Part shown: piece after piece, positions 1 through 36,585 of the stretch | Numbering within the stretch: position 1 is the stretch's first letter | Layout of the letters: every line of letters begins with the position of its first letter | Origin: an uncultured Candidatus Binatia bacterium | GTDB lineage: Bacteria; Desulfobacterota; Binatia; UBA9968; CAXXLF01 | Reading direction: 5' to 3' | Length of the DNA stretch: 64,000 nucleotides | NCBI GenBank assembly: GCA_965218425.1 | Contig: OZ244621.1 | Coordinates: 4,320,001 to 4,384,000, forward strand | Position numbers and translations under genes: made by a program | Notes under the pieces: generated by a model | What the model was told of the DNA's origin: nothing | Seen by the model: the letters and a program-made list of their open reading frames with translations, nothing else | Databases searched by the model: none

Positions 1-471
1 GCTGTGGCAGCCATCTCTACGCGCCCATACGTCGTACCTCGGTATTACCGGAATCGGCGCCGGCCCCATGTATGCCCACAGCAGGCCCACGAATTTTTGC
101 ACGGGGTACGCCTTGTGCTTTATGGTGAGGCGAAACTTGCTATCCGCAGGCTCAGGCGGTGTTTCCAGACAATTTCCTTCGGTGTCGTAGAGCCAACCGT
201 GATAAGCGCAGGCGATGCCCCGTTCCTCAACCCGGCCGTACAGGAGCGAAGCCCCCCGGTGTGAGCAGCGGTCTGCAAGAAGGCCGAATCGGCCGCTCTT
301 GTCCTTGAACAGGACGAGGTCCTCTCCCAGGATCCTGACGAACCGTGTAGGGGAATTGTCCGTAAGCTCTTTCGCAACGGCGACGGGATACCAATAGCGG
401 CGTAACAACTCGCCTGCGGGTTTGCCCGGGCCAACCTCCGTGAGCATCCGATTCTCCTCTTTGGTAAGCAT
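1..471 (-). CDS. Rieske non-heme iron oxygenase alpha subunit (phthalate 4,5-dioxygenase/LigX-like), 5' part; runs off window edge
   Basis: Not in the ORF track. Manual translation from ATG at 471 (RBS AAGGAGG upstream) gives MLTKEENRMLTEVGPGKPAGELLRRYW...CSHRGASL...CAYHGWLYD, the Rieske CxH/CxxH motifs, open to position 1. Confidence 0.92.
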   Translation of the reverse strand, partial: MLTKEENRMLTEVGPGKPAGELLRRYWYPVAVAKELTDNSPTRFVRILGEDLVLFKDKSGRFGLLADRCSHRGASLLYGRVEERGIACAYHGWLYDTEGNCLETPPEPADSKFRLTIKHKAYPVQKFVGLLWAYMGPAPIPVIPRYDVWARRDGCHS

Positions 472-583
472 GACTATCTCCTCCTTGCCGTCTTCCCTCC
501 TGTTCTTTGGAGGGGCCGAAACCCTCGGAAGGTGCTTGTCAGCAGCTTGCACACAGAATGAGTGTGACGTCCGTCATCACCCA

Positions 584-1537
584 TTATTCCCAGTAGGCGA
601 AGGCGTTGCCGCAACCAGTGCCAGCAGGAGACCGGTAGCACGGAGAGTAGTTCACTAACTTCATCTGAAGATCGCCCTCGGCCATTGCGCCGGCCACCAC
701 CAGCCATACCTTAATCTCGGACGTGCCATCAACGAATAATTCCTCTGGGAAATCCGTGAGCTCATCTTCAGCCTTCCGCTGCATGGCGGTCAGAATGGCA
801 CGGTCCATTCGTTCGTCCACAATGTGATGAGTCAGTCCTCCTGTCCCAATTATTGCCACGCGTTTGTCACTTTCCCAACATTTCACAGCCCGACGCAACG
901 CTTTACCGAACTCGTAACACCGCTTGAGGGTGGGCCGATTGGGCGGATAATAGGTGTTGAGCAAGATGGGCACTTGCGGGATGACGTTGCCATTCATGAT
1001 GCGGCGGCATACAAAATCAAAAGCGTGTCCCAGGCCACGCTCCCCTGTAAGAGTCCTGGAGTAAGACACGTCGAATTGGTCGGCGGTGACCGAGAGCACC
1101 AGGTGTCGAGCCATCTCGGCATCCCCAGGATAGACATGACTCTCCCCATGGATGGCCTGGCCGTTGCGTTGTTGCGGGAACGGTGGGACGAACATCGAGT
1201 CAGCCCAATGAATATTCATCGAGGGCATGTGCTCTGACGAAAATACCTCTCGGTGGTCATCACCAACGACAAGCAACACATCTGGTCGCACACGGGTAAG
1301 CGTTTCTTGTAGCGTGAGGATAGCCTGCTGACAGGCAGTATAGCGTTCCCGGATCTTCTCCTCCTTGATTTCCTCGCCGATCCAGGATGCTCTTTGCCGG
1401 GCGAGATCGTCGTAGTCTGCAAGTCCATGGATTTTTAGATGGCGCTTGTCCGCCTCTGCTTTCGTGAACCACTGCTCCACCGGGTTGTTGAGGCCGGGCA
1501 TGTGCGAAGTTCCCATTCCTAACGTGAGGGTTGCCAT
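584..1537 (-). CDS. LigB-family (class III) extradiol ring-cleavage dioxygenase
   Basis: GTSHMP, VGDDH, GHAF, GGLTH and GTSEIKVW motifs match the LigB/LigZ Fe ligands and catalytic His. Confidence 0.88.
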   Translation of the reverse strand: MATLTLGMGTSHMPGLNNPVEQWFTKAEADKRHLKIHGLADYDDLARQRASWIGEEIKEEKIRERYTACQQAILTLQETLTRVRPDVLLVVGDDHREVFSSEHMPSMNIHWADSMFVPPFPQQRNGQAIHGESHVYPGDAEMARHLVLSVTADQFDVSYSRTLTGERGLGHAFDFVCRRIMNGNVIPQVPILLNTYYPPNRPTLKRCYEFGKALRRAVKCWESDKRVAIIGTGGLTHHIVDERMDRAILTAMQRKAEDELTDFPEELFVDGTSEIKVWLVVAGAMAEGDLQMKLVNYSPCYRSPAGTGCGNAFAYWE

Positions 1538-1676
1538 GGTGCTTCTCCTGTGGTTCTTTCCAGGCCTGCCGGCCTCGGGACAAAGGACTCCCAGAGTTTA
1601 GATGGGGAGGGTGAATGTCATACATACTGGGTATGTTCTCACTGCCACTCCCGTACATCAACGGCCTATACGCGAT

Positions 1677-2624
1677 CTACAAATATCCCTGCTCACGCCA
1701 GAATGCTGCAGCGGCGGGGTGGAGCGGGGCACAGAGCGGGGTATCCGGCCCATCCTTGCACATCCGGTGGAGTGGGAGCATGGGACCACCCTCCCAGGGA
1801 ATGCGGTCCTTGCGCGCTTCCAGCGCTTGGCAGAACTGGCGGACAAGGTCGTCAGGCGTGTCAACATGAGTGTAGATGGGCCAGCCGCTAAAGTCGGGGG
1901 AAAGTACGTCCTCGTCAAGCTGGTGGAACTGGGCCTTGGTGATGGGCGAGCAGCGCCAGCCAATCACTTCAAGTCGCTGGGCCAACGGCGGATCCACAGG
2001 CAGCAGGCGCATTCCCGCGTCCAGTGCCTTTCCTACCCAGATGTGGACGGCTTCCTCGAAGTACGCGTCAAACTCGCCACGTTGGAGCGCTTCGACATCG
2101 ATTGCCAAGCCCCGGCGAGGCAAGATCTTACCACCCCAAGAGACAAATTCATCTAAGGAAAACCCGAGGAGCTTGAACACTTCATTGGCGACCATGTAGT
2201 CGGCATGATCGGTTCGTTCGCGCATGGAGATGCGCAGGGGGTAGCGCTTGGCACCAATGTCGGCCAGGGAGGTGATGCCAGTGCTCTCGTGTACGGCCAT
2301 ACCGAACTGGTCCAGCGACGGAATCGTTGTGATCACCCGCAGTGGCATGGGTTCCTTATAGGGGCCCGTTCCTTGTACGGCCATCCCCAGTGGCTCGGCC
2401 GGATTGACCATAGCCAACTGTACCTCTTTGCGCAGCACATCATCGAAGGAATCCGGAGCATCACTGGCAAACAGGCAGTATTGCCAGGGATTGCTGGAGC
2501 CCTGCTTGCGCATCTGCAATAGGGTCTGCGTGGCCGGCCATTTCCGGTCCCACATCAACTCGGATGCCATCTCCAACAGTAGGATCGGACGGATCTGATC
2601 GGCGCGCACATGCCTAGTTTCCAT
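1677..2624 (-). CDS. TAXI-like periplasmic-binding-fold protein with no signal peptide
   Basis: GTGPY..P..LR, TGITSLAD, GEFDAYF and C-terminal PLHPAA..FW.E.GYL are typical of TAXI solute receptors. The N-terminus lacks a hydrophobic h-region. Confidence 0.7.
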   Translation of the reverse strand: METRHVRADQIRPILLLEMASELMWDRKWPATQTLLQMRKQGSSNPWQYCLFASDAPDSFDDVLRKEVQLAMVNPAEPLGMAVQGTGPYKEPMPLRVITTIPSLDQFGMAVHESTGITSLADIGAKRYPLRISMRERTDHADYMVANEVFKLLGFSLDEFVSWGGKILPRRGLAIDVEALQRGEFDAYFEEAVHIWVGKALDAGMRLLPVDPPLAQRLEVIGWRCSPITKAQFHQLDEDVLSPDFSGWPIYTHVDTPDDLVRQFCQALEARKDRIPWEGGPMLPLHRMCKDGPDTPLCAPLHPAAAAFWREQGYL

Positions 2625-2680: not shown

Positions 2681-3124
2681 TTATCCGGACACACGCGCAA
2701 CCACAACCGCCTCAACTCGTTCTCCACGCAGGCCCAAGGGAGCTACGTTAAGAAAATGGTAAGGGGGCTGGCGCATTGCGTCAGGAAAAAGTTGTCCCCA
2801 CTCTTTTAATACCGTGGCACGATAGACATCGTCCATAACATAAAACGTCACGTTGACCAGATCATTAGCGGTTCCCCCTGCAGCCTCCAAGAAGCCGCGA
2901 ATTCGTCGAAACAAAATTTTTAATTCTCGTTCGGGCTCAGCAGGAAGTTCATGGACGGGAGACTCATCATCATGCCCCGACAGCATCGATGAAAAGACGA
3001 ATGCATCTTTGCCGGACCGAAGCACTTTTATCCCGGGTGGTATCACCCCCTTTAGTATTTGCCCCCGGTCCGGAGCATTTGGATGCCGCGGTATGTAGTC
3101 GACCTTCTCCAGTCTATTTGCCAT
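2681..3124 (-). CDS. Rid/YjgF/UK114-family protein (single domain)
   Basis: Start re-set to MANRLEK (GGAGG RBS upstream). LEAAGGTANDLVNVTFYV...W..LFP...VEAVVVA is the Rid fold pattern. Confidence 0.8.
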   Translation of the reverse strand: MANRLEKVDYIPRHPNAPDRGQILKGVIPPGIKVLRSGKDAFVFSSMLSGHDDESPVHELPAEPERELKILFRRIRGFLEAAGGTANDLVNVTFYVMDDVYRATVLKEWGQLFPDAMRQPPYHFLNVAPLGLRGERVEAVVVARVSG

Positions 3125-3304
3125 AAAGCCTCCCTTGCAGTTGCTTGATCTAGAGTAAACCCCGTACCACGGAATTATTCCCGTGGCTTTGGGGCGTTTC
3201 CCTTTGGGGAAGTTCGGAACACTCATCTCCAGAATCACGTCCGCGGCGTTCTGTGGTTCGGGCTGAATCTTCGCGGGACAAGTCAATCAAATGCATGATA
3301 CGCC

Positions 3305-4771
3305 TTACCGGTGGGCTTGGACATGAGCAAAGAGTGTTTTCCATTTTTTTTCGATATCCCTGCGCAACTCTCGGCTATTCATATTAACTTCAGGGAACTT
3401 GTCTTTCCACTCGTAAGGTCGGCAGGCGTTAATTACGAGGTTGTGCGCGTTGTATTTTTCCCTACCTTTCATGGATGGATCCGATGCCTGGCCAGGTGGT
3501 ATCCTTGGGTCCAATTGCCACACTGCCGTACCCGGAACGATGGTAACCCCCGATTCTGGGATGCAGCGGCTGGCAATGGCCCAGAGCACCTCTTCTGTGT
3601 ACAGCAGATCAATGTCTTCATCCACCAGCACCCAAATATGATTTCCACTATGTTGATCTCCCCCAGGCTCTAATTGGCGGATCACGTCTTCAACGTGTCC
3701 TGCGTACATTTGCTTCACCTTTACCACCCGAAAACCTGGGGCAACCACGGTAACCACTTCTTGAACGCCCTGAATACCGGCTTGTTCAAGTCGTCTTCGC
3801 ACACGAAAATCAATGTTCGTGAGCTCTTTATAAGCTCGAATGTGCCGAATAGGAGGAGAGCCGAAGATTATACAGCCCTCCCGGTAGTGAATGGCTGCCA
3901 CTTCAATGACCGTTTCGAGTCTGCGACCATGTCCATAGTAGCCCGTCCACTCGCCGAAGGGACCTTCGGGTAATAATTTTTCCTCGGGCGAAGGAATAAA
4001 GCCCTCAATAGCTATCTCTGCTGTGGCAGGGATTGGGAGGCCGGTAATAGGTCCTTTGACCACTGGATACGGACTTTTGTGAAGGTAACCTGCCACTTCA
4101 AACTCGGAGACCCCATTGGGGCAGTGATAGACACTGCCTCCGGAGAGCAGTGTCAGGATGGGTTCCTGCCCTACGGAAACCACCACTGGGCATTTTTCCC
4201 CACGGCTCCAATGCTTGCGTCGGATAAAATCACCGTGCCGATTCGGTTCCATGAAGAGGCCGCAGGTATTTTTGTCGGCGATGCAAACCCGGTATGAGCC
4301 CGAGTTGACAAATCCAGTGTCAGGGTCCCGTTGAATAACGCATAGTCCCGTCCCTATGTATCGATCAATGTCTTTGTCATGCCATCTCGGGGTGGGAAAG
4401 TGAAAAAGGTCGACATCTCCACCCTTGAGAGTATTGTCGAACACAGGGCCAGAGTAAACTTCGCACATGGGTATGGGTTGAATTTCACCGATCACGCGGT
4501 TCCACTCTTCAGCCATCTCCACAAGAGGACGCTCATGATTGAGGCCTAGGGCAAGCGCCGTTCGCTCCGGTCTTGTACAGAGGTTGGCAGCCAACCCAAA
4601 ACTCTTGGGATAATCAGGGACCTCATCGAAGAGGAGTGCCGGCCCGCCTCTTTCCACCATCAATTCGGTAATAACCCCAATTTCCAGATCCCAATGAGCA
4701 CCTCGAACTCGTTCCAGCATTCCTAACTGATCGAGCTTTTTTAGGTAATCCCTTAAATCATTCCACAACAT
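3305..4771 (-). CDS. UbiD-family prFMN-dependent (de)carboxylase (#1)
   Basis: DLRDYL, PALLFD, SYR, EIAIEG, EGPFGEWTGYY, VDEDID. Confidence 0.93.
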   Translation of the reverse strand: MLWNDLRDYLKKLDQLGMLERVRGAHWDLEIGVITELMVERGGPALLFDEVPDYPKSFGLAANLCTRPERTALALGLNHERPLVEMAEEWNRVIGEIQPIPMCEVYSGPVFDNTLKGGDVDLFHFPTPRWHDKDIDRYIGTGLCVIQRDPDTGFVNSGSYRVCIADKNTCGLFMEPNRHGDFIRRKHWSRGEKCPVVVSVGQEPILTLLSGGSVYHCPNGVSEFEVAGYLHKSPYPVVKGPITGLPIPATAEIAIEGFIPSPEEKLLPEGPFGEWTGYYGHGRRLETVIEVAAIHYREGCIIFGSPPIRHIRAYKELTNIDFRVRRRLEQAGIQGVQEVVTVVAPGFRVVKVKQMYAGHVEDVIRQLEPGGDQHSGNHIWVLVDEDIDLLYTEEVLWAIASRCIPESGVTIVPGTAVWQLDPRIPPGQASDPSMKGREKYNAHNLVINACRPYEWKDKFPEVNMNSRELRRDIEKKWKTLFAHVQAHR

Positions 4772-4812: not shown

Positions 4813-6012
4813 TCATTCAGGGCTCGGCACCTGGTGCGACATGAAGATTTCTTTCCTTTCCCTTGCTGACTGCATGATGGCGAGCACCACTTCCAGGGTC
4901 GCCTCTCCCCATCTCCCATCGTGGAACACTGGCCGGTCTTCAGTTACCGAACGGTACAACTCGTCGAGTTCTGCTTTACGGCTTCGGGCCGTTTTTGGCA
5001 CTGGGACTTCCCAGGTCTTCTCATCACCATAAATGATCAGACCGTCAAGGGACTGCCGAATATCACCGTGTTCACAGCTGACGATTGTGATCCCGAAATG
5101 GGAGTGGGGATAATCGTCGCTTCGGATCCGGGGATCTTCCTTTCCGCCTCCAAATCTCTTGCCTTCTTTAATGACCCATTCGTCTTCGGGGGATTTTAAA
5201 TTTCTGATAACGGCCCGTGCCGCTATATTCTGATCCGGCGTCCGTTTTGCCTCACCCATCCAGGAAGTGAACTCTGCCGTATCAAAATGGGCATAGCCAG
5301 TAAATACGACTGTGGCTGGCGTACCGTCCTCAAACTCGAGATAGCAGACCCAGGCACCTTCAGCCCTGCGCGATGCATCCCAGACACCTGTCATGGCTCT
5401 TACGCTCCGTATCATACCGCCCCCTAACAACCGAATTATATCGACGATATGGGGCCCTTGGTTATAAATGATATTGCCCCCTTTAGTGGCATCCAGCTCT
5501 TGGGGCATCCGGGGCCGATACATGAAATCCTGATAATGCCAATTGTTGATCATACACAGGCGACCAAGCTCCCCACCTTTGATGATCGTTCTCATCTTAC
5601 GGACAGGTGGATCAAAGCTATGCGTATGCCCGCACAGGAGTTTTACTCCGTTGCGTTCGCAGGCTGCGTTCATGGCTTCACATTCTTCGATTGTGAAAGC
5701 CATTGGCTTTTCTACAATCACATGCTTTTTTGCCTCTGCTGCCAGAATCACATGTTCTGCGTGGTATTGGTTTGGGGTACAAACGTAGATCGCATCGACG
5801 TTAGGGCTCTTGCACAGATCCTCCACCTTCTCATAAGCCTCACTGCTGAATTCACGTGTGAATTTTTCCCGGGCCTGAGCCCGAGGATCGGCTGCCCCAG
5901 TCAATTCCAAATGAGGGTGGGCAATGATTTGCGGCGATAGTTGCGCCGCCGCTACACCAAGGCCGGCTATGCCAAATCGAAGCGTTGGTTCCTTGCCTAA
6001 CATTCCCGCCAT
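4813..6012 (-). CDS. Gfo/Idh/MocA oxidoreductase, cis-dihydrodiol dehydrogenase-like (phthalate dihydrodiol dehydrogenase type)
   Basis: GIAGLG Rossmann motif, EKPMA, GHTHSFD, NQGPH.VD, HDGRWGEATLEV, and position next to a Rieske oxygenase. Confidence 0.85.
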   Translation of the reverse strand: MAGMLGKEPTLRFGIAGLGVAAAQLSPQIIAHPHLELTGAADPRAQAREKFTREFSSEAYEKVEDLCKSPNVDAIYVCTPNQYHAEHVILAAEAKKHVIVEKPMAFTIEECEAMNAACERNGVKLLCGHTHSFDPPVRKMRTIIKGGELGRLCMINNWHYQDFMYRPRMPQELDATKGGNIIYNQGPHIVDIIRLLGGGMIRSVRAMTGVWDASRRAEGAWVCYLEFEDGTPATVVFTGYAHFDTAEFTSWMGEAKRTPDQNIAARAVIRNLKSPEDEWVIKEGKRFGGGKEDPRIRSDDYPHSHFGITIVSCEHGDIRQSLDGLIIYGDEKTWEVPVPKTARSRKAELDELYRSVTEDRPVFHDGRWGEATLEVVLAIMQSARERKEIFMSHQVPSPE

Positions 6013-6085: not shown

Positions 6086-6814
6086 CTACATCAAAGCGGT
6101 GACGATTGCGCCGAACAAGCCCTCGTTCAGCCCAGCTGGAGCTACGTTCCAAGTTTGCCGTGCAGGAAGATTACTTCGGTCAGGGAATATTTTTTTCCAT
6201 GCCTCGTTCGTCACGCCACGGTAATCATCACTCATCAGATAGAGCATCACGTCGACGATATTGTCGACGCTCCCACCCGTGGACTCGGCCCATGTCTTGA
6301 CCTGCTGAAAAAGAGCATGGGCCTGCTCTTGCGGGTCCGCCGGAAGGGTTTTTGACCCAGGCAACCGTCCAACAAGTAATGGAGAATAAACCAGGTCTCC
6401 TCGATTTCCGGAGGGAGCGGATGGATCATCAAGGATAGCAGTGAAATGTGCCGCAAAACGCCAGTGGGTCCCGTGAGGGGAAACGTTTAGAATATGACGG
6501 GCAGGACGAACCGCGGGATCCGGAAACATCTTGAGCCATTCCTGATTGATGGCCTGACGGTCCTTGTCATCAAATACGTAGACAGCCATCGTAGCGATAT
6601 CGGCGGGAGTTCCCCCACCGGCTTCCACAAGACCTCGGATTCGTCCAAATAACAGAGCCGCGTCTTCAGAAGCATCGGCCCCTTGCTCCCTGTTGGGCCC
6701 CACTGGGCCTAGGAGCGATGAAAATATAAATTCCTCCGCCCTGATGCCTTCGGGTACCGGTGAGTGAACACGGTCTCGCCCTGGGACATGAATCGACTGT
6801 CTTTTTGGTATCAT
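6086..6814 (-). CDS. Tandem two-domain Rid-family protein
   Basis: Two repeats of GGT/S..DI/NI....Y...W..xFPD...PAR..xNV. Confidence 0.82.
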   Translation of the reverse strand: MIPKRQSIHVPGRDRVHSPVPEGIRAEEFIFSSLLGPVGPNREQGADASEDAALLFGRIRGLVEAGGGTPADIATMAVYVFDDKDRQAINQEWLKMFPDPAVRPARHILNVSPHGTHWRFAAHFTAILDDPSAPSGNRGDLVYSPLLVGRLPGSKTLPADPQEQAHALFQQVKTWAESTGGSVDNIVDVMLYLMSDDYRGVTNEAWKKIFPDRSNLPARQTWNVAPAGLNEGLFGAIVTALM

Positions 6815-6892: not shown

Positions 6893-8125
6893 CTACTGCG
6901 ATTGACCGCCATTTTCAGTACGATTTTTTTCTTTGGAGTATTTTCGCCAGTCTTCAGAGGCAGGGATACGCGCACGCCACACCGGGATTCGGAACCTGTC
7001 CGGATAGGGTACTACACGACTCTCAGCCATTTGCCGAATAATACGAAGCATTAGGTTCCGCGCTACAACGATGGCCCGGTCGGTGGAACCCAAGTGCTCT
7101 TTAGTCCGGTCCTGGATGGGGCCCTCACCTTCGGTGGCCCAAGCGTCATGGACCTGAAACGCGCTACCCATCCCAATAAATGTTCTGAGATTCATCTCGT
7201 CCGGCTCCTGTAGATACCGATTGGCCCGGTTCCGCACCAACCGGTAGTCGGGTGTTAGGTCAGAACGTTCCGACTGCACCTTTTTCTTCTCCATGGGTTT
7301 TTCTTGTGTGAACATTATTACGTATTTCCAATGGTGGGTGTCGTCAATCGGTACATGCCAATTCACCGTATAGCCATCATCTGTGCCCGAAGGAAATGCA
7401 CACAGGTTGGGGAGTATAAAGTTGGTAGTCCTAATATAAGTTGTGCTGCTACCCGCGGTCTCTGCCCTTATAACCCGCACACCAAAGGGGGCCTCTTCCA
7501 CCTCCATGTCTATAAACCAACGCTGGCTCGCAGGTGGAGGTGGGGGTGCGTTCAGTCTTCCACCATAGGTCCTGTGGAGAAACGGTACATGGATGGGGTC
7601 TATATTTCCTTCGTTGGCCTGTTGGTAGTTACATTCTTGGTAAATTTTGCTGTTAAAGCGATAGTCGTCTGATGCTTTCAGAAATTCGAACTCTGGAGTG
7701 GGAGGGGGGTCGCCCGGCCCCAGGTAGGCCAAAACAATTCCCCCCATCTCAATGCATGGATACCAAGGATGGCGTATGGTTTTGTGAAAGGTGCTAGCTT
7801 CCGGTTCGCCAGGCTGCTCAAGACACCTGCCGCGAATATCATAGACCCAACCATGATAGAGACAGCGCAGACCGCCGTTTTCGATACGGCCATAGCTCAA
7901 ATCCGCCCCACGATGGGAGCAGTGTAATTCCAGAAGCCCCACTCGGTTGAACTCATCACGAAAAAGTACCAGGTCTTCCCCCAAAAGACGGACGGGTCGA
8001 GGACGGCTGCCAGGTGGAAGCTCTTCTGCCAATGCTACCGGCTGCCAGTACCGACGTAGAAAATGACCGCAAGGAGTACCGGGGCCAATTCTTGTCAGCA
8101 AATCATTTTCGTCTTGCGATAACAT
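6893..8125 (-). CDS. Rieske non-heme iron oxygenase alpha subunit
   Basis: Start re-set to MLSQDENDLL. CSHRGAD, CLYHGW and the mononuclear Fe site EGNIDPIHVPFLH are present. Confidence 0.93.
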   Translation of the reverse strand: MLSQDENDLLTRIGPGTPCGHFLRRYWQPVALAEELPPGSRPRPVRLLGEDLVLFRDEFNRVGLLELHCSHRGADLSYGRIENGGLRCLYHGWVYDIRGRCLEQPGEPEASTFHKTIRHPWYPCIEMGGIVLAYLGPGDPPPTPEFEFLKASDDYRFNSKIYQECNYQQANEGNIDPIHVPFLHRTYGGRLNAPPPPPASQRWFIDMEVEEAPFGVRVIRAETAGSSTTYIRTTNFILPNLCAFPSGTDDGYTVNWHVPIDDTHHWKYVIMFTQEKPMEKKKVQSERSDLTPDYRLVRNRANRYLQEPDEMNLRTFIGMGSAFQVHDAWATEGEGPIQDRTKEHLGSTDRAIVVARNLMLRIIRQMAESRVVPYPDRFRIPVWRARIPASEDWRKYSKEKNRTENGGQSQ

Positions 8126-8144: not shown

Positions 8145-9106
8145 TCATTGCCAGTAGGCGAATGCGCACCCACAGCCTGTTCCAGCGGGCGAGCGGTAGC
8201 ACGGTTCGTAGGCCAAGAGGTTCATGGCCATGTCGGCCTCCTCCATGGCGCCAGCCACCACAGTCCAGTTACGAATCTCGCCGGTGCCCCAGTTGAACAA
8301 CTCTTCGGGGTGGCTAACCAGTTTTTTCTCATCCTTCGCCTGCATGGCCTCCAGAACGGAGCGGTCCAGGGCTTCATCGATCACCGTATGGGATAGACCG
8401 CCGCTGCCAATTAAAGCAACAGTCTTATCGCTATCCCAGGACACTACGGCACGTTTCAAAGCTCTTCCTAAACTGTAGCATCGTTTTAAGGTTGGTTGAT
8501 TGGGGGCATAGTATGTGTTCAGAATCACAGGCACTTGGGGAGGGACCGATCCTTTCATAATTCGTCCGTAAATAAAGTCAAAGGCATGGCCGATAGAACG
8601 CCCTTGCTGTACATTGCGGCAGCTGGCGATATCGAAGCCCTCGGCATTCAAATACCCTATCACATGCCGCCCGAGAGCGGGTTCGCCATATAATTGCAGG
8701 CAATCCTCCTTTTTTGGGGTGCGAATGCGACTGGAATGGGGAACATGGGGTATCCGTTCACCCCAAAAAACTCCGATAGCGGGAATTTCGTCTTCAGGCA
8801 TGAAAATTTCGTGAGTATCGTCGCCAACAATAATAACCACCTCCGGAGCTACCTGTTTAAGCAGCTCTCCAAGTTGGTCAATGCTCTTCTGGCAGGCCTC
8901 GTGCCGGCGCTGCCACACCTCCGGTGTTAGCTCTTTTCCGATCCAGCTATCCCTCTCCCGGATCATCTGCTCGATATCGAGCTTCATGGGTATACCGCCC
9001 CCTTTGGGATTCGCCATGTCCCTCTTCCCAGCCTCAGCCCACCTGTCTACTGTCCCATTTAGGCTGGGTGCATGACTCGCACATACTCCAGGACCATATG
9101 TGCCAT
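8145..9106 (-). pseudogene. LigB-family extradiol dioxygenase with a 1-nt deletion frameshift near the 5' end (possibly a sequencing error)
   Basis: AGGAGG RBS then ATG at 9106 gives MAHMVL. Adding one G at about 9088-9089 gives GVCASHAPSLN, in frame with ORF 8145..9017 and parallel to MATLTLGMGTSHMPGLN of the paralog at 584..1537. Confidence 0.85.
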
Positions 9107-9481: not shown

Positions 9482-10273
9482 TTAGAAGGGACGAGCCGCA
9501 CGCACGTCATCGACATACTTTTTAGCAAGCTCAAGAACCAACTTGGCAACCTCGTCCCCGCGACCTGGAATACGCCCGCCTTGAAGAAACGTAGCCCTAT
9601 AGGTGAACCCGGAAATGCGTCCGTCCGCCTCAGGGCCCGCAGTCGACGATCCGCCCAAGACGGGAATTCGACATTTCTCCGCCACTTCGGCATAGATACT
9701 GTGATCCCTGACATGGGTCAAATCCAACATGGTTGCACCTGCCTCCTCCAGAGCTTTCGCCTCGCTGAGGATCTTTTCTCGCATTCGTTTCGCCATATCC
9801 TCTGTGGACGTGTCCAATGACCCGGCGCTCAGGGTACTCTGTGGAGAAAACCCAAACTGAGTCCAAACAGGAATTCCACCTCCGGCAATTCGTCGAACGG
9901 CATCTAAGTTACTTGCAGCATTATCCAATTTTACCATCTCCGCGTGCCCTTCCTTCACCAAGCGAATTGCCGCCCTGACAGCTGACTCGGGTCCTTCTTG
10001 CACTGGGCCAAAAGGCATATCGCAACTCGCCACGGCCCGTTTCACCCCACGGGTCACGGCGAGGCATACAATAATCATTTGCTCCACGGTCACATCGTGA
10101 TGGGTCGCCTGCCCCCACATGTTCCGCCCCACACTGTCACCCACAGTGAGGATGTCCACCCCTGCAAGGTCCATGATTTGCGCCATTTGATAATCGTAGG
10201 TGATTGCGGCGGAGATTTTTTTCTTCTCACGTTTCATTTGTTGCAAATCTGCTACCGTTAATTTCTCTGCCAT
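9482..10273 (-). CDS. panB: PanB-like (ketopantoate hydroxymethyltransferase superfamily) protein with a divergent active site
   Basis: TYDY, VGDSVG, DMPFG and GxxPQS are retained, but KLDN, TQFG and DLTHV replace the usual KLEG, GHIG and VLECV. Confidence 0.75.
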   Translation of the reverse strand: MAEKLTVADLQQMKREKKKISAAITYDYQMAQIMDLAGVDILTVGDSVGRNMWGQATHHDVTVEQMIIVCLAVTRGVKRAVASCDMPFGPVQEGPESAVRAAIRLVKEGHAEMVKLDNAASNLDAVRRIAGGGIPVWTQFGFSPQSTLSAGSLDTSTEDMAKRMREKILSEAKALEEAGATMLDLTHVRDHSIYAEVAEKCRIPVLGGSSTAGPEADGRISGFTYRATFLQGGRIPGRGDEVAKLVLELAKKYVDDVRAARPF

Positions 10274-10994: not shown

Positions 10995-11070
10995 TGGCTC
11001 CCCGGGAGGGACTCGAACCCCCGACACGGTGGTTAACAGCCACCCGCTCTACCGACTGAGCTACCGGGGA
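10995..11070 (-). tRNA. tRNA-Asn(GTT)
   Basis: 76 nt TCCCCGGTAGCTCAGTCGGTAGAGCGGGTGGCT-GTT-AACCACCGTGTCGGGGGTTCGAGTCCCTCCCGGGGAGCCA. Forms a cloverleaf with encoded CCA. Confidence 0.98.
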
Positions 11071-26584: not shown

Positions 26585-26630
26585 GCAAGAACCGAAAAGA
26601 AGGCTAGCCGAACACAAGAGGAGAACTCGT

Positions 26631-28073: not shown

Positions 28074-28090
28074 TTTGAAGGGAGTTGATC

Positions 28091-29539
28091 ATGGGGCACA
28101 AGTCTTTAGGCGAGTTTATTGAAGCGGCTCGGGCCATTGGTGAGGTGAAAAATGTGCACGGCGCCGATCTTGACATGGAGGTTGGCTGTTTGACTGAACT
28201 GTCAGCCGAACAGAATGGGCCCATGCTGCTTTTCGACCGGTTTAAGGGTTTTCCCGACGACTTCCGTGTGGCCAGCAACGTCGTTCGAAACAGCCGACGC
28301 CGATATGCGTTGGCCATGGGTCTCCCCGTAGATGCCCATGCCATCGAAATGGTCAAGCAGCTAAGAGAGCGGCGGAAAAGGAAAGAGCCAACACCCCCGG
28401 TTCAGGTGAGTGATGGACCCGTCCTGGAAAATATACTTTCGGGTCAAGATGCGGACGTGGGGAAATTTCCGGCACCAAAGTGGCACTCGGCGGACGGCGG
28501 ACACTACATTGGCACAGGGGACATTGTTCTCATGCGTGACCCGGACACCGGGTGGATTAATTTCGGCACCTATCGCGCATGCGTGCAGGGGCATAATTTA
28601 ATAAGCATCTGGATCATCAAGCACAAGCGCGGCCGCATCATAGCTGAAAAGTACTGGGCTCAAGGCAAGGCATGTCCCGTGGCTGTGGTCCTCGGATGCG
28701 ACCCATTGACCTTCATGGCTGGAACAAGCCGGTTAAAATACGAAGAGGCGGGCGCCCTTCACGGTGCCCCGGTTGAAGTCGTCAAGGGGCCCTTCACGAG
28801 TCTTCCCATCCCTGCCCATGCCGAGATCGTCCTCGAAGGCGAAATTCCATCGCCCAATGAGGAGACTGCGGTGGAAGGACCCTTTGGTGAATGGCCGGGG
28901 TACTACTCCCACACCGGCCCCGAATGCGTGGTCCGAATAAAGCAGATCCTGCACCGAAGTTCTCCGATTATTAATGGCAACCCACCATTGAGACCTTTGC
29001 TAGGGTTACGTGATGACCTGCCGGGAACGGCTGTAAACATGTGGGATCACCTGGAAAGCTCGGGGATCTCTGACGTCGTTGGAGTCTGGGGGTATTGTAA
29101 CTCGCTTATGATAGTCATCTCGTTGAAACAGCGCTACCCGGGCCATGCCCAACAGGCGCTTTTGGCCGCGGCCGGTTTGCGCAGCTCGGCCAGTATGAAT
29201 ACCTACTTCGTGGCAGTGGACGAGGATATTGATCCCTCCGAGTTGAACGATGTGGTCTGGGCGCTATGCACACGGGTGAATCCCACCACGGCCCTGGACG
29301 TACTTCATAACGCATGGACAAGCGACCTGGACCCCAGACTAACACCGGAACAAAAGTCTTCGGGTGACTACACCATGGGGCGTTTACTGATCAATGCCTG
29401 CAAGCCTTTTTCGTGGAAGGATTCCTTCCCCAAGACAAACATTTTTTCCACTGAAGAGCGGCGGCAGGTTGCAGAGCGGTGGAGCAGTTTGCTAAGTGAA
29501 ATCACAAGTTTAGCAAAACGTCCCGCGCCCCTGGGATAG
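28091..29539 (+). CDS. UbiD-family (de)carboxylase (#5)
   Basis: DGGHYIGT, TYRAC, EGPFGEWPGYY, VDEDIDP, INACKP. Confidence 0.93.
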   Translation: MGHKSLGEFIEAARAIGEVKNVHGADLDMEVGCLTELSAEQNGPMLLFDRFKGFPDDFRVASNVVRNSRRRYALAMGLPVDAHAIEMVKQLRERRKRKEPTPPVQVSDGPVLENILSGQDADVGKFPAPKWHSADGGHYIGTGDIVLMRDPDTGWINFGTYRACVQGHNLISIWIIKHKRGRIIAEKYWAQGKACPVAVVLGCDPLTFMAGTSRLKYEEAGALHGAPVEVVKGPFTSLPIPAHAEIVLEGEIPSPNEETAVEGPFGEWPGYYSHTGPECVVRIKQILHRSSPIINGNPPLRPLLGLRDDLPGTAVNMWDHLESSGISDVVGVWGYCNSLMIVISLKQRYPGHAQQALLAAAGLRSSASMNTYFVAVDEDIDPSELNDVVWALCTRVNPTTALDVLHNAWTSDLDPRLTPEQKSSGDYTMGRLLINACKPFSWKDSFPKTNIFSTEERRQVAERWSSLLSEITSLAKRPAPLG

Positions 29540-29602: not shown

Positions 29603-29659
29603 GCCTCCTTTCTCGGCGGAGACTGAATGTGGAGGGAAACTTCACCAAAGGGGAGTCCT

Positions 29660-30711
29660 ATGAGAACATTATATAGATCAAGCACGGTTAGCGCCTTTGT
29701 GATTCTTCTTGCAACGGCGTTCGCAATTTTATCGCAGCCTGCGGTATCCAATGCCTTCACCGAAGGCAAAACCATTCGGCTTTTGGTCTTTGCAACTCCA
29801 GGTGGTGGCTATGACTACTACTCCAGGATAGTCATGCGTCACATACCAAAGTATCTTCCCGGCAATCCGAAAATCCTCGTTCAGAACATGCCCATCGGAT
29901 ATCTGGCCGCCAACACCCTTTGGCGATCCAAGCCAGATGGCATTACCTGGGGTGTATTGGGCCGGGAAGGCTATCTAAACAACATGCAGGTGAGAAAGCA
30001 CAACAGTTCGATTTCAGCAAAGGCATTCCCATTGGCAGCACCGCAGATGAAAATACGTTGATCTATATTCGTACCGACAGCGGGATTTCTTCTTTGAAAG
30101 ATTTGTCCGCTGCCATTAAGGCGGGAAAAAGGCCTCCCATTATGGCTAGCACCACCCGGTCTGGCTCGAGTTACGTTATGGGCGAGGTCCTGGAGTATTT
30201 GTCGCCCAATATGAGGTTTAAACAGGTCCTGGGTTATCCTGGCGGTTCTGAGGTGGACCTGGCGATCCGAAGGGGGGAAGCCCAAGCGGCCGGGCGTAGC
30301 AAAAATTCATTCTTTGCGCGCACGAAGGATCTTCTTGACAAGGGAGAGATCGCAGTCATCTTGCAAACCGGCACCGTCGATGGAAAACGTGACCCGGACT
30401 TCGAGAATGTGCCCACCCTTGGCGAGTTCGCCGACAGCCGTGAGGATAGGCAACTCCTAAACCTAGTGCTCCTCAATCAGATTGTTGCGAGACCCTTCTG
30501 GCTGCCTCCGGGAGTACCCCAGGATAGAGTTAAATTAATCCGGGAGGCATTCCGAAAAACGGTCAATGACCCCAAGCTAATCGCCCGAGCCAAGAAGGCG
30601 CGACGTCATATCGGACCCGTATACGGTGACCGCATGGCCAAGTTGTACGCTGATGCCTTCGCTGCGCCTGAGGGTATGAAAGACCGAATAAGAAAAATCC
30701 TTGGAAAATAG
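29660..30711 (+). pseudogene. tctC: TctC/Bug-family solute-binding protein with a frameshift at about 29985
   Basis: Signal peptide, PGGGYD..R, VQNMP and KPDG.T are in one frame. GYPGG.E..LA..RGE, VPTL.E, RPF..PPGVP..R are in the other. Confidence 0.85.
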
Positions 30712-30741
30712 CCTAGTGACGAGGCAACTAGAGTTGTTTCC

Positions 30742-32778
30742 ATGCCTCCACTTGACGCTTTTATCGCGGGTCTAACCGGCGTCTTCCAGATTCCCGCGTT
30801 TCCCCTGATGCTCCTGGGGATCGTAATTGGGTTCGTCGTGGGACTATTGCCGGGATTGGGAGGAGCCACGACCCTCGCCTTGATGCTCCCCTTTGTCTTC
30901 GACATGCCGCCCATCGCGGCGTTTTCTTTTCTGTTGGGCATGCACGCGGTGGTGTCTACGACCGGAGACATCACCTCGGTCCTCTTCGGCGTTCCTGGAG
31001 AGGGAACGGCGGCAGCTACAATTGTAGACGGCCACCCCATGGCCAAAAGGGGAGAGGCAGGTAGGGCCCTTGGCGCCGCCCTATTCAGTTCCTTGATTGG
31101 AGCGGTTGTCGGTGCCTTTGTTCTTGCAGCGTCCATTCCCATAGTAACCCCACTAGTGCTTTCCCTGGGTTCGCCTGAATTTTTCATGTTGGCGCTTCTC
31201 GGTATAAGCTTCATTGCCGCCCTAAGCGGTGGTTCGTTAACCCGCGGGCTGATCGCCGGCTGCGCGGGCTTGCTGTTGGCCACCATCGGTCTGGACCCGC
31301 GAACGGGTGCCATGCGGTTCGGCTTCGACATGCCTTACCTGATGAATGGCATCAGCCTGGTTCCCGTAGGTATCGGGTTATTTGCTATTCCCGAGATTAT
31401 CGACCTTGCGGTGCGAGGGACCAGCATCGCCGAGAACAACGTGGGCAAATTGGGTGGAGTATGGGAGGGGGTTAAGGATACCTTCCGGCATTGGGGAGTG
31501 ACCGTTAGAAGCAGCCTCCTTGGCACATTCATCGGTATTATCCCCGGGTTGGGAGGCGGAGTAGCGCAGTGGATCGCCTACGGGCATGCGGTGCAGAGTG
31601 CGGACGACAAGAGTCAGTTCGGCAAAGGCGATGTGCGCGGCGTTCTGGGACCAGGGGCGGCCAATAACTCTAAAGAGGGCGGGAGTCTGATTCCCGCCGT
31701 AGCCTTTGCGGTCCCGGGTAGCTTGAGCATGGCCATCCTCCTCGGTGCATTCTTGATCCTGGGTCTAAATCCCGGTCCGGAAATGCTGACGAAGGATCTG
31801 CACATCACCTTCTCTATGGTTTGGGTGATCGTCATCTCCAACATCATCACGGTTCTCATCAGCCTGGCCTTCCTGAATCAGCTGGCAAAAATCACCACCG
31901 TACGGGGAGCACTGTTAATCCCGTTTCTCCTGATGCTGATTTATCTCGGCGCGTTTGCCACCAACAACCACATCGGCGATATGCTCGTGATGGTTCTGTT
32001 CGGCATCCTGGGATACATCATGGTGTTGTTTCACTGGCCACGCCCACCGTTGGTCTTGGGATTGGTATTGGGCCACCTGGCGGAAAACTATCTCTTCATA
32101 TCTGCCAACATTTACGGTGCCAGGATGATGGTGCAGCCAGGGGTTATTATCATTTCGATTTTGATCATAGCTGCAATTTTTTATCCGCTCTATCAGAACA
32201 TGCGCGCTAAACGTGCGGAGAATGCCAGCCAAGCCCTTACTCCGGAATCCGAGCAGACCTCCCCTGCCCATCCCAAAAGCAGTGTGAAATTTCAGTTCCA
32301 ACCGAAACTGATGGTCAGCCTTGCGTTTACTACATTTACAGTTTTTTTCTTGTGGGCAGGAAAGGATTGGCCCTTCGAGGCGCGACTCTTTCCGTGGGTC
32401 GTTGCCATTCCAGCACTTGCGTTGTCATTGTTGGAGTTCGGCCGTGACTTAACAACCGCCTCAGGAAAGGCAAGGGGTCAAATCTTGGACTTTCAGTTTG
32501 CTGAAGGCATCGACCCCGCTGTGGCTCGTCCAAGAATGCTCAACATCATGTCCTGGACTCTGGGCATCCTTGCCGGGGTGTGGCTGGTGGGAGTTGAGAT
32601 TACTATGACCGCCGTTACGTTTGCCTATTTAAAATTTCAGGGCGGCGAGCGCTGGGGCATTACTCTCGTTCTGACCCTTATCGCCTGGTTGTTCGTACGC
32701 CTCGTCTTTATCGAATTTATGCATCTGCCATTCCCCAACGGAATCATCATCGAAGGGATCCGCAGCCTATTTCAATAA
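30742..32778 (+). CDS. tctA: Tripartite tricarboxylate transporter, TctA-TctB fusion
   Basis: GLLPGLG, GVPG..AAAT..DGHPM, ANNSKEGG, AVPGS, followed by a linker and a TctB-like 4-TM domain (ARLFPW...LPFP). Confidence 0.9.
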   Translation: MPPLDAFIAGLTGVFQIPAFPLMLLGIVIGFVVGLLPGLGGATTLALMLPFVFDMPPIAAFSFLLGMHAVVSTTGDITSVLFGVPGEGTAAATIVDGHPMAKRGEAGRALGAALFSSLIGAVVGAFVLAASIPIVTPLVLSLGSPEFFMLALLGISFIAALSGGSLTRGLIAGCAGLLLATIGLDPRTGAMRFGFDMPYLMNGISLVPVGIGLFAIPEIIDLAVRGTSIAENNVGKLGGVWEGVKDTFRHWGVTVRSSLLGTFIGIIPGLGGGVAQWIAYGHAVQSADDKSQFGKGDVRGVLGPGAANNSKEGGSLIPAVAFAVPGSLSMAILLGAFLILGLNPGPEMLTKDLHITFSMVWVIVISNIITVLISLAFLNQLAKITTVRGALLIPFLLMLIYLGAFATNNHIGDMLVMVLFGILGYIMVLFHWPRPPLVLGLVLGHLAENYLFISANIYGARMMVQPGVIIISILIIAAIFYPLYQNMRAKRAENASQALTPESEQTSPAHPKSSVKFQFQPKLMVSLAFTTFTVFFLWAGKDWPFEARLFPWVVAIPALALSLLEFGRDLTTASGKARGQILDFQFAEGIDPAVARPRMLNIMSWTLGILAGVWLVGVEITMTAVTFAYLKFQGGERWGITLVLTLIAWLFVRLVFIEFMHLPFPNGIIIEGIRSLFQ

Positions 32779-33328: not shown

Positions 33329-33336
33329 CGAGTAAA

Positions 33337-33854: not shown

Positions 33855-35300
33855 TTACTCCAGTTCCTTCTTCCACTTTTCGGTAATACGATCCCGTAAC
33901 TCAGGGGTCATGGAGCTGACCGGGGGAAACTTATCCTTCCAACTATAAGGACGGCAAGCGTTGATAATCGCGCGGCTGTTCACCCAATCACTAGCCTCCC
34001 TCTTGTCAGGAGGTAAAACCGTATCCAGGGGCGTGCTCCAGCAACCATCGATAACCGTCATGGCGGTTTTGGGATCGCAGCGGGTGGAAATTGCCCAAAT
34101 GACCTCTCCCATATCCGACGGGTCAATATCCTCATCCACTACCACCACGAATCGTCCGTGGTAATTACCCGCACGGCAAGCTAGGGCTGCTAAGGCTGCC
34201 TGCTGCGCATGGCCGTGATAACGCTGCTTGATGGAGACCACGATGAACGGCGCCCCACCACCCGGAGCGGACCCTCCGACAAAGCACCATGCACCTTGCA
34301 CGTCCGGCACATCGGCCTTGTCGAGGTAATTCCAAATAGCGGCTGCCGCGATGGGGACACCGAAGGTCAATGCTGGCGGTTTTAAGGGGGGCGCACCTGC
34401 AATGATCGGGTTGTTTCTGAAATAAAGGGCTTTCACGCGGATGATGGGTTCGTTCTTTGCACCGTGTGCATAGTAGCCAGGCCATTCCCCAAAGGGCCCT
34501 TCCACACGGCTGTCCTCGCTAGGGGGCGGCACCTCCCCTTCAATGGCGATCTCTGCGTGTGCCGGGATCGGGAGTCCGGTGACTTTTCCTCGCACCACCT
34601 CCACGGGCTCTTGACGCAACCCGCCGGCATAGTCGAACTCCGATACTCCATAAGGAACCGATAGACCCGCGGAAAGCCACATGGTTGGATCCTGACCAAA
34701 GGTCACCGCGATGGGACAGGCCTTGCCCCGGGCCCAGTATTTTTCCCGGATGATTCTCGCATGGTGACCGGGAGAAATGTAGGTTCCGAGAGTCCGTTTG
34801 TCGTGTACCTGTATGCGGTAGATGCCCACATTGGTGAAGTCGGTGTCCGGATCACGGGTAATCACGCAGCACCCTGTTCCCAGGTATCTTCCACCGTCCC
34901 GCTCGTGCCACCGTGGTGTAGGAAAGGACATCATGTCAATATCCCCACCCGTGCGTTCGTTCTCGAACACCGACCCTTCGAACACAAACTTTGGTGGTAG
35001 GGGTTTCAGATCCGTAAGTATCTCCCTCCAGCGCCACACCACGTCTCGTTTGGAACTTTTCGGAGACACCCCCACCATCAATGCCGCACGACGGGGATGA
35101 AGAACCAGGTTGGACGCCACTCGGTAAGTTGGAGGATAATCCGGAATCTGATCGAAGAGGAGAAGAGGCGAGGGCTCACGATAGGCAAGGATTTCAGTCA
35201 AGGCGCCAATCTCCAGATCCCAGTGGGCACCGTGGATCTCTTTGACCTCCCCCATCTCTTTGGCCGCATCAATGAATTCACGCAAATCCCGAAACACCAT
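33855..35300 (-). CDS. UbiD-family (de)carboxylase (#6)
   Basis: DLREFI, DGGRYLGT, IYRIQ, EGPFGEWPGYY, INACRP. Confidence 0.93.
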   Translation of the reverse strand: MVFRDLREFIDAAKEMGEVKEIHGAHWDLEIGALTEILAYREPSPLLLFDQIPDYPPTYRVASNLVLHPRRAALMVGVSPKSSKRDVVWRWREILTDLKPLPPKFVFEGSVFENERTGGDIDMMSFPTPRWHERDGGRYLGTGCCVITRDPDTDFTNVGIYRIQVHDKRTLGTYISPGHHARIIREKYWARGKACPIAVTFGQDPTMWLSAGLSVPYGVSEFDYAGGLRQEPVEVVRGKVTGLPIPAHAEIAIEGEVPPPSEDSRVEGPFGEWPGYYAHGAKNEPIIRVKALYFRNNPIIAGAPPLKPPALTFGVPIAAAAIWNYLDKADVPDVQGAWCFVGGSAPGGGAPFIVVSIKQRYHGHAQQAALAALACRAGNYHGRFVVVVDEDIDPSDMGEVIWAISTRCDPKTAMTVIDGCWSTPLDTVLPPDKREASDWVNSRAIINACRPYSWKDKFPPVSSMTPELRDRITEKWKKELE

Positions 35301-35352
35301 TATTCCTCCTTATGCCTTTCTCTCCGGAGGTAGCCGCCGGGATGAAAGTGTT

Positions 35353-36585
35353 TCAAGCATCTCCGAACAGAGTCCGCCATGAGCGATCTCTGGGCAATTC
35401 TGCAATGGCACATTGGAGATAAGAAAAATCATACACATTGGGATCATAAAGGAGCCCGGGTGGCTCCTTCCGTTCTTGCACGGCCTTGATCGCTTTGAGC
35501 AAGTATTTACGGACTGCGATAAGGTATGCATCGCCGGCCCCTAGATGCTCTTTGCTCCGATCCACTAACGCTCCCATACTCTCCGTAGCGCAGGCGTCCT
35601 GGTTAAGGAACTCTTCTATGCCGGTAAAATTTACTGTCTTTTGCGCCCCTCTGTCCTGGAGGTAGTGGTTCCGCTTATTACGGATTTTCTTGTAATCAGG
35701 TCCAATAAAGGTCCGCTTTGACGAGTCGTCTTTACCGAAAGGTCTCACAAATTTGAAAAAGAAATCGTATCTCCAGGTATTTACATTATCCGCTGGAACC
35801 TGATAGACGGCTTTAAACCCGTCAATTTTTCCATTCACCACACCACCCACGGGGACACAACCAATAAAGGGAAGGACAAAATAAGAAGTGCGTATGTAGT
35901 TGGTGTCGCCCTCTGCCTTCCTGATGGCTGCAACTCTGAGCCCCAAGGTCGTTTCTTCAATTTCGAATCTAGGCGATTGATCTAAATTAATGGGAACACC
36001 TCTCTCCCCGCCCGGTTTAAACTCCCTGTGCAGGAAGTTAAGATGAGAAGAATCGCAGTCCCCTTCAAGCCCTTGAAAGTAATTACATTCTAAAAGACTC
36101 TTGGCTATGTAGGCATTTTCCCTGGGAACCTTGAGCCACGGGTATTCTGGAAAAGCAGGAACCTTCCCCTTGGGTCCCATGTAGGTGAAAATGACACCGT
36201 TTGCCTCTCTGCAAGGATAGGCTGGATGGTGGACCTTGTCTTTGAGACGGCTCCCTTCCGGTTCCGCCGGTGTTTCGAGGACGTTTCCTTCCACATCATA
36301 CTTCCAACCATGGTAAACGCACCTCAACCCGCACTCCTCATTACGACCGTAGAACAAGGATGTGCCGCGGTGGGAACAGTGTTCGTCCAACAAACCTATC
36401 CTTCCTTTAGTGTCGCGAAATGCCACCAGATCTTCACCCAGCAATCTGACCTTTACCGGCGGGCAATCGGGCTCCGGGATCTCCTCAGATAACAGCGCGG
36501 GAATCCAGTATCGCCGCATCAACTTTCCCATGGGACTCCCCGGATCTACCCGAGTAAGAAGTTCGTTTTCTTCCCTTGAAAGCAT
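35353..36585 (-). CDS. Rieske non-heme iron oxygenase alpha subunit
   Basis: CSHRGTSL, CVYHGW, EGDCDSSHLNFLH, QDACATESMG. Confidence 0.93.
   Translation of the reverse strand: MLSREENELLTRVDPGSPMGKLMRRYWIPALLSEEIPEPDCPPVKVRLLGEDLVAFRDTKGRIGLLDEHCSHRGTSLFYGRNEECGLRCVYHGWKYDVEGNVLETPAEPEGSRLKDKVHHPAYPCREANGVIFTYMGPKGKVPAFPEYPWLKVPRENAYIAKSLLECNYFQGLEGDCDSSHLNFLHREFKPGGERGVPINLDQSPRFEIEETTLGLRVAAIRKAEGDTNYIRTSYFVLPFIGCVPVGGVVNGKIDGFKAVYQVPADNVNTWRYDFFFKFVRPFGKDDSSKRTFIGPDYKKIRNKRNHYLQDRGAQKTVNFTGIEEFLNQDACATESMGALVDRSKEHLGAGDAYLIAVRKYLLKAIKAVQERKEPPGLLYDPNVYDFSYLQCAIAELPRDRSWRTLFGDA

Follow-up and report, generated by a model that had tools for sequence, protein, structure and literature searches.

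In the proteobacterial phthalate 4,5-route, a Rieske-type phthalate 4,5-dioxygenase (PDO; the solved enzyme is PDO_KF1, structure 7FJL) and a dihydrodiol dehydrogenase of PhtB type (7WZD), encoded by adjacent genes, are joined by 4,5-dihydroxyphthalate decarboxylase (PhtD), which is not a UbiD enzyme. UbiD decarboxylases, which use prenylated flavin mononucleotide (prFMN), enter phthalate routes only via the anaerobic coenzyme A (CoA) route in the available parts of a 2026 review (PMC13040137), and likewise in those of PMC10434107. Here we describe a 64,000-nucleotide stretch of DNA from an uncultured Candidatus Binatia bacterium (contig OZ244621.1, positions 4,320,001 to 4,384,000; hereafter the window), in which the same Rieske and dehydrogenase families are again encoded together but the third partner is a prFMN-dependent UbiD instead of PhtD. 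The gene set is real and conserved, and it likely represents a so far uncharacterised form of the phthalate-type funnel, although its linkage is narrower and its layout more variable than an initial annotation of the window had proposed.

Parts of this arrangement are familiar from other systems. PhdA, the UbiD enzyme of the phdABC operon of Mycolicibacterium fortuitum (7PDA), serves an aerobic pathway that also involves dioxygenases (PMC4626857), and it is the top match of all four UbiDs of interest in the window, far above HudA, VdcC, AroY and Fdc1. The PhdA operon nevertheless has its own UbiX (phdB) and a maturase (phdC), which the modules of the window lack, and the oxygenases that partner PhdA carry naphthalene/biphenyl or halobenzoate annotations instead of PDO-family ones (PMC4626857). 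AroY and VdcC carry out prFMN-dependent decarboxylation of hydroxylated aromatic acids, the reaction proposed for the cassette (PMC10850782), but they belong to a distant clade (~150-170 bits versus 428 for PhdA, with the VdcC model far below cut-off). The LigXa/LigZ/LigY/LigW DDVA and mhq routes combine a LigXa_C Rieske protein, an extradiol dioxygenase and a decarboxylase in an aerobic funnel, although LigXa is a demethylase and no dihydrodiol dehydrogenase figures among the steps listed (PMC12673573); the UbiD step of the Paenibacillus mhq route rests on expression data (PMC12673573).

The initial annotation had proposed an undescribed aerobic route using prFMN decarboxylases. That claim is too broad, since aerobic use of a UbiD has precedent in PhdA and is also proposed in PMC12673573. 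We found no description of a route that combines a PDO-family Rieske oxygenase, a dihydrodiol dehydrogenase and a UbiD in a literature search that left most subscription journals and supplements outside its scope. Only the coupling of the PDO/PhtB-type pair to a prFMN UbiD appears to be new.

Conservation of the gene set

The triple of Rieske, dehydrogenase and UbiD genes occurs twice in the window, as first read. On the reverse strand (8125-3305), module 1 encodes the Rieske alpha subunit Rsk1 (6893..8125), the dehydrogenase Gfo1 of the Gfo/Idh/MocA family (4813..6012) and the UbiD U1 (3305..4771), with a RidA-like gene (6086..6814) splitting Rsk1 from Gfo1. On the forward strand (24013-29539), module 2 encodes the Rieske alpha subunit Rsk2 (24013..25314), Gfo2 (25358..26584, dihydrodiol dehydrogenase-like by Pfam family and its likeness to Gfo1) and two UbiDs, U4 (26631..28073, starting at 26631 and not at 26475) and U5 (28091..29539). 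At 49% identity between the Rieske proteins, 52% between the dehydrogenases and 39% between the UbiDs, the modules are old paralogues. Rsk1 and Rsk2 belong to a subclade of PDO-family Rieske proteins marked by the motif G(N/S)EGN.D (here subclade R), with 19 genes in the host genome; U1, U4, U5 and a further UbiD of the window, U6, belong to one clade that takes in 31 of the 72 UbiDs in the genome (SH-like approximate likelihood ratio test 100, quick tree) and which we call the PhdA clade.

The host genome is a single 4.46 Mb contig, 97% complete, with 3980 genes called by a codon model and identities taken from an open reading frame (ORF) listing and Pfam/NCBIfam scans. Because it holds 72 UbiDs and 88 Rieske matches (fragments included), chance adjacency needed testing; it also carries 17 PhtB-like Gfo genes. 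We counted genes as linked when they lay within three genes of each other and, in the host genome, were co-oriented. By this measure a PhdA-type UbiD accompanies 9 of the 19 subclade R genes versus 2 of the 65 other Rieske genes. Seen from the decarboxylase side, a PDO-clade Rieske gene accompanies 11 of the 31 PhdA-clade UbiDs versus 5 of the 41 others, against a genome-wide background of 2.7% for any gene, and all seven host members of the UbiD subclade to which U1 and U4 belong are linked. The association thus exceeds chance for one Rieske subclade, subclade R, but these counts overstate its statistical strength because the paralogues are not independent and form about seven separate clusters.

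To the host genome we added a UbiD-side sample (the best 80 of 594 loci of a genome collection and 15 regions of two relatives; the tree omits rows shorter than 380 aa and one duplicate locus, L013) and a Rieske-side sample (79 metagenome loci, from the best 80 of 605, and 40 hand-picked regions). The latter regions were chosen from 105 subclade R matches outside the host genome and are tilted to high scores, some clusters being already known; trees were a quick tree and FastTree. These loci and regions hold 121 subclade R genes, 60 of them with at least 3 kb on either side. These 60 divide into 22 with both a Gfo gene and a UbiD, 5 with Gfo only, 9 with UbiD only and 24 with neither, so that 22 of 27 loci with Rieske and dehydrogenase carry a UbiD, in each case of the one PhdA type. 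After clustering at 80%, UbiD is present in 7 of 11 Gfo-bearing clusters and triples make up 7 of 37 clusters; in the unselected metagenome part, triples number 5 of 22. The triple stays within three positions in all three sampled families of the order. In the U1/U4 subclade of the UbiD tree, a linked Rieske gene is seen for 18 of 20 rows, the misses being one contig end and one locus with the Rieske gene two ORFs upstream. The predicted linkage of UbiD to Rieske and Gfo genes in other genomes is therefore borne out, even though the module UbiDs share a clade with a characterised enzyme. A fixed order of Rieske, then Gfo, then UbiD is not, as it holds in only 4 of the 22 triples. Distances among Rieske proteins and among their partner UbiDs correlate (Mantel r=0.42, from 27 pairs representing 61), which suggests that the two have partly co-diverged; reshuffled pairings are also visible.

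PhtD-like genes lie beside 3 of the 60 flanked subclade R genes, none of which has Gfo or UbiD, and beside 2 of the 19 in the host genome, neither UbiD-linked. A profile built from two host proteins, tentatively labelled PhtD-like, found no such gene beside module 1 or module 2. Two enzymes that served as alternatives for the third position would be distributed in this way.

Reconstitution would have its best-conserved target in an operon of UbiD, Rieske, Gfo, PanB-like, cupin, alpha/beta hydrolase and UbiD genes, in that order, found in eight loci (L009, L020, L022, L025, L028, L215, L220 and L222); a LigB gene comes next where the locus extends that far, and three loci add a second Rieske, Gfo and cupin block. 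The triple also occurs in L018 and L088 under other phylum titles, but we claim no cross-phylum spread because same-order genomes share the layout of these two loci and titles of metagenome-assembled genomes are unreliable. Rieske and UbiD genes without Gfo are seen in L017, L034 and L035, whose titles name Dehalococcoidia. Among plasmids of cultured bacteria, eight records hold a PhdA-clade UbiD at 34-36% identity; of the three inspected, two have no annotated Rieske gene and one is unannotated. No subclade R member was found on such plasmids, the best match having ~41% identity. As for the family at large, three genomes from other families of the phylum (G181, G187, G197) have 53-60 UbiD candidates each, versus 0-7 in other listed genomes, so the UbiD expansion is not limited to the host's order.

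The third set of genes in the window, once read as another copy of the module, does not share this conservation. It consists of a luciferase-like monooxygenase (LLM; 36633..37622, PF00296), the Rieske protein Rsk3 (35353..36585; 7FJL E 2.7e-91, Pfam Rieske+LigXa_C) and U6 (33855..35300), in that order on the reverse strand (37622-33855). There is no dehydrogenase, Rsk3 falls outside subclade R, and none of the six U6 orthologues in other loci has a Rieske neighbour. LLM genes lie near three of these six (L121, L014, L015), and in one relative, G101, LLM directly precedes the U6 orthologue with no Rieske gene between. We therefore dropped the third set as a conserved module.

Placement and residues of the enzymes

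All eight UbiDs of the window were identified by Pfam, and U1, U4, U5 and U6 match PF20695, PF01977 and PF20696 above cut-off. These four are 37-44% identical to one another and 26-33% to the window's other four. Kinship to PhdA is read from search scores, because characterised UbiDs, PhdA included, are absent from the trees. Against 7PDA, U5 scores 524 bits (E 2.6e-156), the best of the three searched by sequence, followed by U6 with 428 (E 3.7e-127) and U1 with 358 (E 7.8e-106; next match 1.6e-32); the next enzymes reach 163, 196 and 116 bits, respectively. The fourth, U4, was compared through an AlphaFold model (pLDDT, the predicted local distance difference test, 68; weak at active-site loops), whose top Foldseek match is 7pda_A, at just 34% identity in the structural alignment. 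By these scores PhdA is the closest characterised relative of the 31-member clade, and we dropped the idea of an undescribed UbiD subfamily, PhdA being the clear top match.

The initial annotation had singled out four sequence marks of the module UbiDs. Three of them (YIGTG/YLGTG, GEW.GYY and xNxCxP) are present in all four proteins and in none of the window's other four, whereas K.W..G..CP.A is complete in three, U1 ending in V. As marks of the modules they do not hold: the four are present in 22, 21, 18 and 10 of the 31 clade members and in 0 of the 41 other UbiDs. They are better called PhdA-clade marks, since the closest solved clade member is PhdA.

UbiDs use an E(D)-R-E catalytic network and bind a metal (PMC8988006). 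The corresponding R/E/E triad is kept in U1, U4, U5 and U6, and its columns are intact in all PhdA-clade rows of a 295-sequence alignment (five outgroup rows uncounted). At the positions that, from Fdc1, we take to be the Mn2+ ligands of the prFMN phosphate (N/H/E), U1 and U6 have N/H/E, U4 has N/D/E and U5 has N/R/K. U5 thus places Arg and Lys at the presumed metal-ligand His and Glu of PhdA, together with a short deletion, as do three other rows; on a separate branch, 4 of 5 rows likewise have Lys at the presumed Glu position. Enzymes of the U5 type may possibly bind prFMN without metal. A different change marks U3 (22089..23735, reverse strand), a 548-aa UbiD divergent from Rsk2: its catalytic Arg is Asn in all nine rows of its clade and the first triad Glu is Leu or Arg. 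The same Arg to Asn exchange, with a new conserved Arg ~20 residues upstream, is found in both ~546-aa UbiD lineages that travel with the cassette (U3, and L009:15081-16721 with its kin), and U3 orthologues lie beside subclade R and Gfo genes in L121, L147, L190 and L240.

The expectation of a Rieske enzyme of phthalate 4,5-dioxygenase type is confirmed at family level. The top match of the module Rieske genes is 7FJL, the CxH...CxxH and D/H/H iron motifs are present, and Rsk1 and Rsk2 were placed by Pfam (Rieske+LigXa_C) and alignment, Rsk1 also by tree. In PDO the pocket residues are R207, R244, S179 and S182, of which Arg244 binds carboxylate (PMC8649396). Rsk2 keeps the R207 and R244 equivalents with L/V in place of S179/S182, only the R244 equivalent is clearly kept in Rsk1, and an Arg207-like residue is present in most of the linked Rieske subclade. 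Judged from the alignment, neither Rsk1 nor Rsk2 retains the full PDO pocket. The cassette thus resembles the phthalate 4,5-route in its carboxylate-binding Arg and departs from it in lacking S179/S182, and its substrate is likely to be carboxylated but not o-phthalate. Gfo1, the one dehydrogenase searched, is nearest to phthalate dihydrodiol dehydrogenase 7WZD (E 4.2e-93; next family 3e-21), and a PhtB-type enzyme implies a cis-dihydrodiol intermediate.

Reaction order and rival explanations

We tentatively favour, at somewhat less than an even chance, the view that the conserved Rieske, dehydrogenase and PhdA-clade UbiD set carries out a modified phthalate 4,5-route, with a prFMN UbiD in place of PhtD. 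The substrate, an aromatic or heteroaromatic di-carboxylate but not o-phthalate, would be cis-dihydroxylated with O2, the dihydrodiol would be re-aromatised by the dehydrogenase with NAD+, and the UbiD would then strip a carboxylate activated by the ring hydroxyl. The protocatechuate-like product could pass to a ring-cleaving enzyme of LigB or cupin type, often encoded elsewhere, with electrons from a shared carrier and prFMN from the single UbiX-sized gene of the genome. For the last of these, the genome has two UbiX matches, one of UbiX-sized flavoprotein length, at a locus ~3 Mb from the modules. Of the three-step cassette first proposed, the genes are indeed duplicated, linked and conserved; chemistry, step order and substrates we infer, and the third copy drops out of the proposal. 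We prefer this order because the UbiD stands where PhtD otherwise would and the two enzymes did not turn up together. The RidA-like genes of module 1, with the kinship to PhdA, hint at N-containing rings as substrates.

Several observations weigh against this reading. PhdA is said to act as the first step. The PhtD-like label, on which the exclusion pattern draws, is tentative, with no NCBIfam match. Gene order varies, 18 of the 22 triples running UbiD, Rieske, Gfo and the other 4 Rieske, Gfo, UbiD; in the host genome, Gfo lies within three genes of only 5 of the 11 Rieske-linked UbiDs; and only 29 of 135 PhdA-clade rows are Rieske-linked, with 10 state changes on the tree. PhdA-clade UbiDs also occur in records titled as anaerobes and, on an Aromatoleum EbN1 plasmid (NC_006824.1, 5908-7422; L275), in a UbiD/UbiX/CoA-transferase cluster. 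Broken genes flank both modules, and FNR-type (PF00175) and GR-type (PF14759) reductases have no match in the 97%-complete host genome. Finally, PhdA decarboxylates unactivated rings such as anthracene-1-carboxylate (PMC10850782); a PhdA-like enzyme acting first on such rings would favour decarboxylation before oxygenation.

That reverse order is a close rival, which we consider rather unlikely but less so than any other alternative: starting from a (hetero)aromatic acid with two or three carboxylates on an unactivated ring, the UbiD would remove one of them, the Rieske enzyme would dihydroxylate the remaining acid, as 3-chlorobenzoate dioxygenase of its clade does, and the dehydrogenase would yield a carboxylated catechol for ring cleavage. 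PhdA is both the top structural and the top sequence match and acts on unactivated rings. Moreover, the M. fortuitum phenazine region has ring-hydroxylating and extradiol dioxygenases (PMC4626857), and Arg207 and Arg244 of PDO can also bind a single carboxylate (PMC8649396). The UbiD gene stands ahead of the Rieske gene in 18 of 22 triples, although gene order predicts reaction order poorly. What decarboxylation at the outset leaves unexplained is why PhtD-like and UbiD genes do not co-occur beside subclade R, small as those numbers are.

Alternatively, the enzymes might merely be co-located in scavenging islands, serving different related acids under shared regulation and transport with no fixed sequence of steps. 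The genome's 72 UbiDs and 88 Rieske matches would suit such islands, as would its 59 cupins, the 77 members of a single binding-protein type, the reshuffled pairings of only partly congruent trees (r=0.42) and the third set of the window, itself such a non-conserved juxtaposition. We think this explanation improbable, given that the link is specific to a subclade (9/19 versus 2/65) and that the triple stays together across all three sampled families. Slightly less probable again is a LigXa-like monooxygenase or O-demethylase coupled to a UbiD that decarboxylates a hydroxy-aromatic acid, with a dehydrogenase for some copies only: the C-terminal Pfam family is LigXa_C, 9 of 60 subclade R loci have a UbiD but no nearby Gfo, 6 of 11 linked host UbiDs likewise have none, and a UbiD has been proposed to act on 5-carboxyvanillate when lignin dimers are degraded aerobically (PMC12673573), but the closest structures are PDO-family enzymes and the PhtB-type dehydrogenase in both window modules implies a cis-dihydrodiol.

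Surroundings, electron supply and significance

Read along the reverse strand, module 1 comprises PanB-like, LigB, Rieske, RidA-like, Gfo, UbiD, RidA-like, binding-protein and LigB genes. The PanB-like protein (9482..10273) scores below the family cut-off, and a PanB-like gene recurs beside the cassette in relatives; such proteins are possibly a repurposed aldolase. In the host genome as a whole, at least four PanB-like genes lie in aromatic-catabolic clusters near LigB. The LigB-family gene at the head of the module (8145..9106) is frameshifted near 9088: by reading-frame analysis, the ribosome-binding site and ATG at 9106 do not share the frame of the rest of the gene, and an ORF begun at 9017 is without the N-terminal His motif seen in the intact paralogue. 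Contigs of three runs, some possibly from the source sample, cover this frameshift and show no difference. The RidA-like protein at 6086..6814 is about twice the usual length (PF01042; TIGR00004 below cut-off), and the second one (2681..3286, PF01042) probably starts near 2986 according to the codon model. Beyond it follow a binding protein of TAXI/NMT1_3 fold (1677..2624, PF16868) and an intact LigB-family class III extradiol dioxygenase (584..1537, PF02900 E 1.5e-22), which is closest among solved structures to gallate dioxygenase and protocatechuate 4,5-dioxygenase and keeps the N-terminal SH and internal His/Glu motifs. A tRNA-Asn (10995-11070, reverse strand) separates module 1 from the block that follows, and contig joints and loose ends there give the appearance of an integration site.

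In module 2, the forward genes are followed by a TctA transporter (PF01970) behind a frameshifted TctC-like gene. The pair spans 29627..32778, the frame changing near 30000; the TctC-like gene itself spans 29627-30711 and is so labelled by resemblance, without a Pfam match. The divergent, reverse-strand arm adds two UbiDs, U3 and U2 (19450..20859), the latter outside the PhdA clade by Pfam and tree and syntenic in G101 (L121), with a solute-binding protein gene between them (20898..22013) that has an in-frame stop, its letters identical in contigs of three runs. Farther along the window, a split Rieske gene (56924-58130) lies beside IS1182 and IS110 transposases, and a cluster at 38062-44702 (reverse strand) combines a UbiD, a trio resembling the molybdoenzyme 4-hydroxybenzoyl-CoA reductase (below cut-off) and a phenylacetate-CoA-ligase-like gene. 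A promoter scan returned 6 sites versus 10.6 in shuffles, that is, fewer than expected.

LigB ring cleavage, into which the initial annotation had the cassette feed, fares poorly. LigB lies within three genes of 3 of the 22 triples, whereas a cupin lies within four genes of 20 of them; module 2 has no ring-cleavage gene, and the LigB gene heading module 1 is the frameshifted one. LigB is thus only weakly indicated as the ring-cleavage partner. The conserved cupin has no NCBIfam or PDB match, and its Atlas clusters are unnamed cupins.

Unlike the phthalate 4,5-route, neither the cassette nor the genome has a gene of the phthalate dioxygenase reductase type. In control searches, the profiles for which the host genome gave no match, PF00175 and PF14759, found matches in 11 of 14 and 3 of 14 genomes, respectively. 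PF00175 is also absent from 25 of 41 genomes of the order, including the triple-bearing G128, G131, G133, G145 and G045. The host genome does encode cytochrome c oxidase subunit I, a point in favour of the reading we prefer, and its candidate electron carriers are a 95-aa [2Fe-2S] ferredoxin, an FdxA-type ferredoxin, a 102-aa Rieske ferredoxin in an apparent Fe-S assembly operon and a 499-aa flavoprotein resembling the glutamate synthase small subunit (GltD-like). The missing reductase is a puzzle in itself and a practical obstacle to the expression of each module with a Rieske reductase that had been proposed.

A broader reading joins these strands, and we think it unlikely: Binatia would run a duplicated family of oxygenase-dehydrogenase-prFMN funnels for acids of natural origin that are poly-carboxylated or N-heteroaromatic. 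In these funnels PhtD would have been displaced by PhdA-clade UbiDs, among them a metal-ligand-variant UbiD and an Arg-relocated companion UbiD, and an undescribed electron donor would drive dozens of phthalate-type Rieske enzymes. The donor is included because many of these genomes lack canonical reductases.

If the chemistry we favour is true, the cassette would bring a new type of decarboxylase to aerobic phthalate-type routes. It would also open a route to substrates for a UbiD clade of 2846 proteins at E<=1e-100 (8000 candidates scored), for which one characterised member was found, PhdA. UbiDs are sought as reversible aromatic carboxylases, and the Rieske partner narrows the substrate screen. 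With a match in 37 of the 61 genomes searched in this uncultured order, subclade R may bear on the turnover of aromatic acids in nature.

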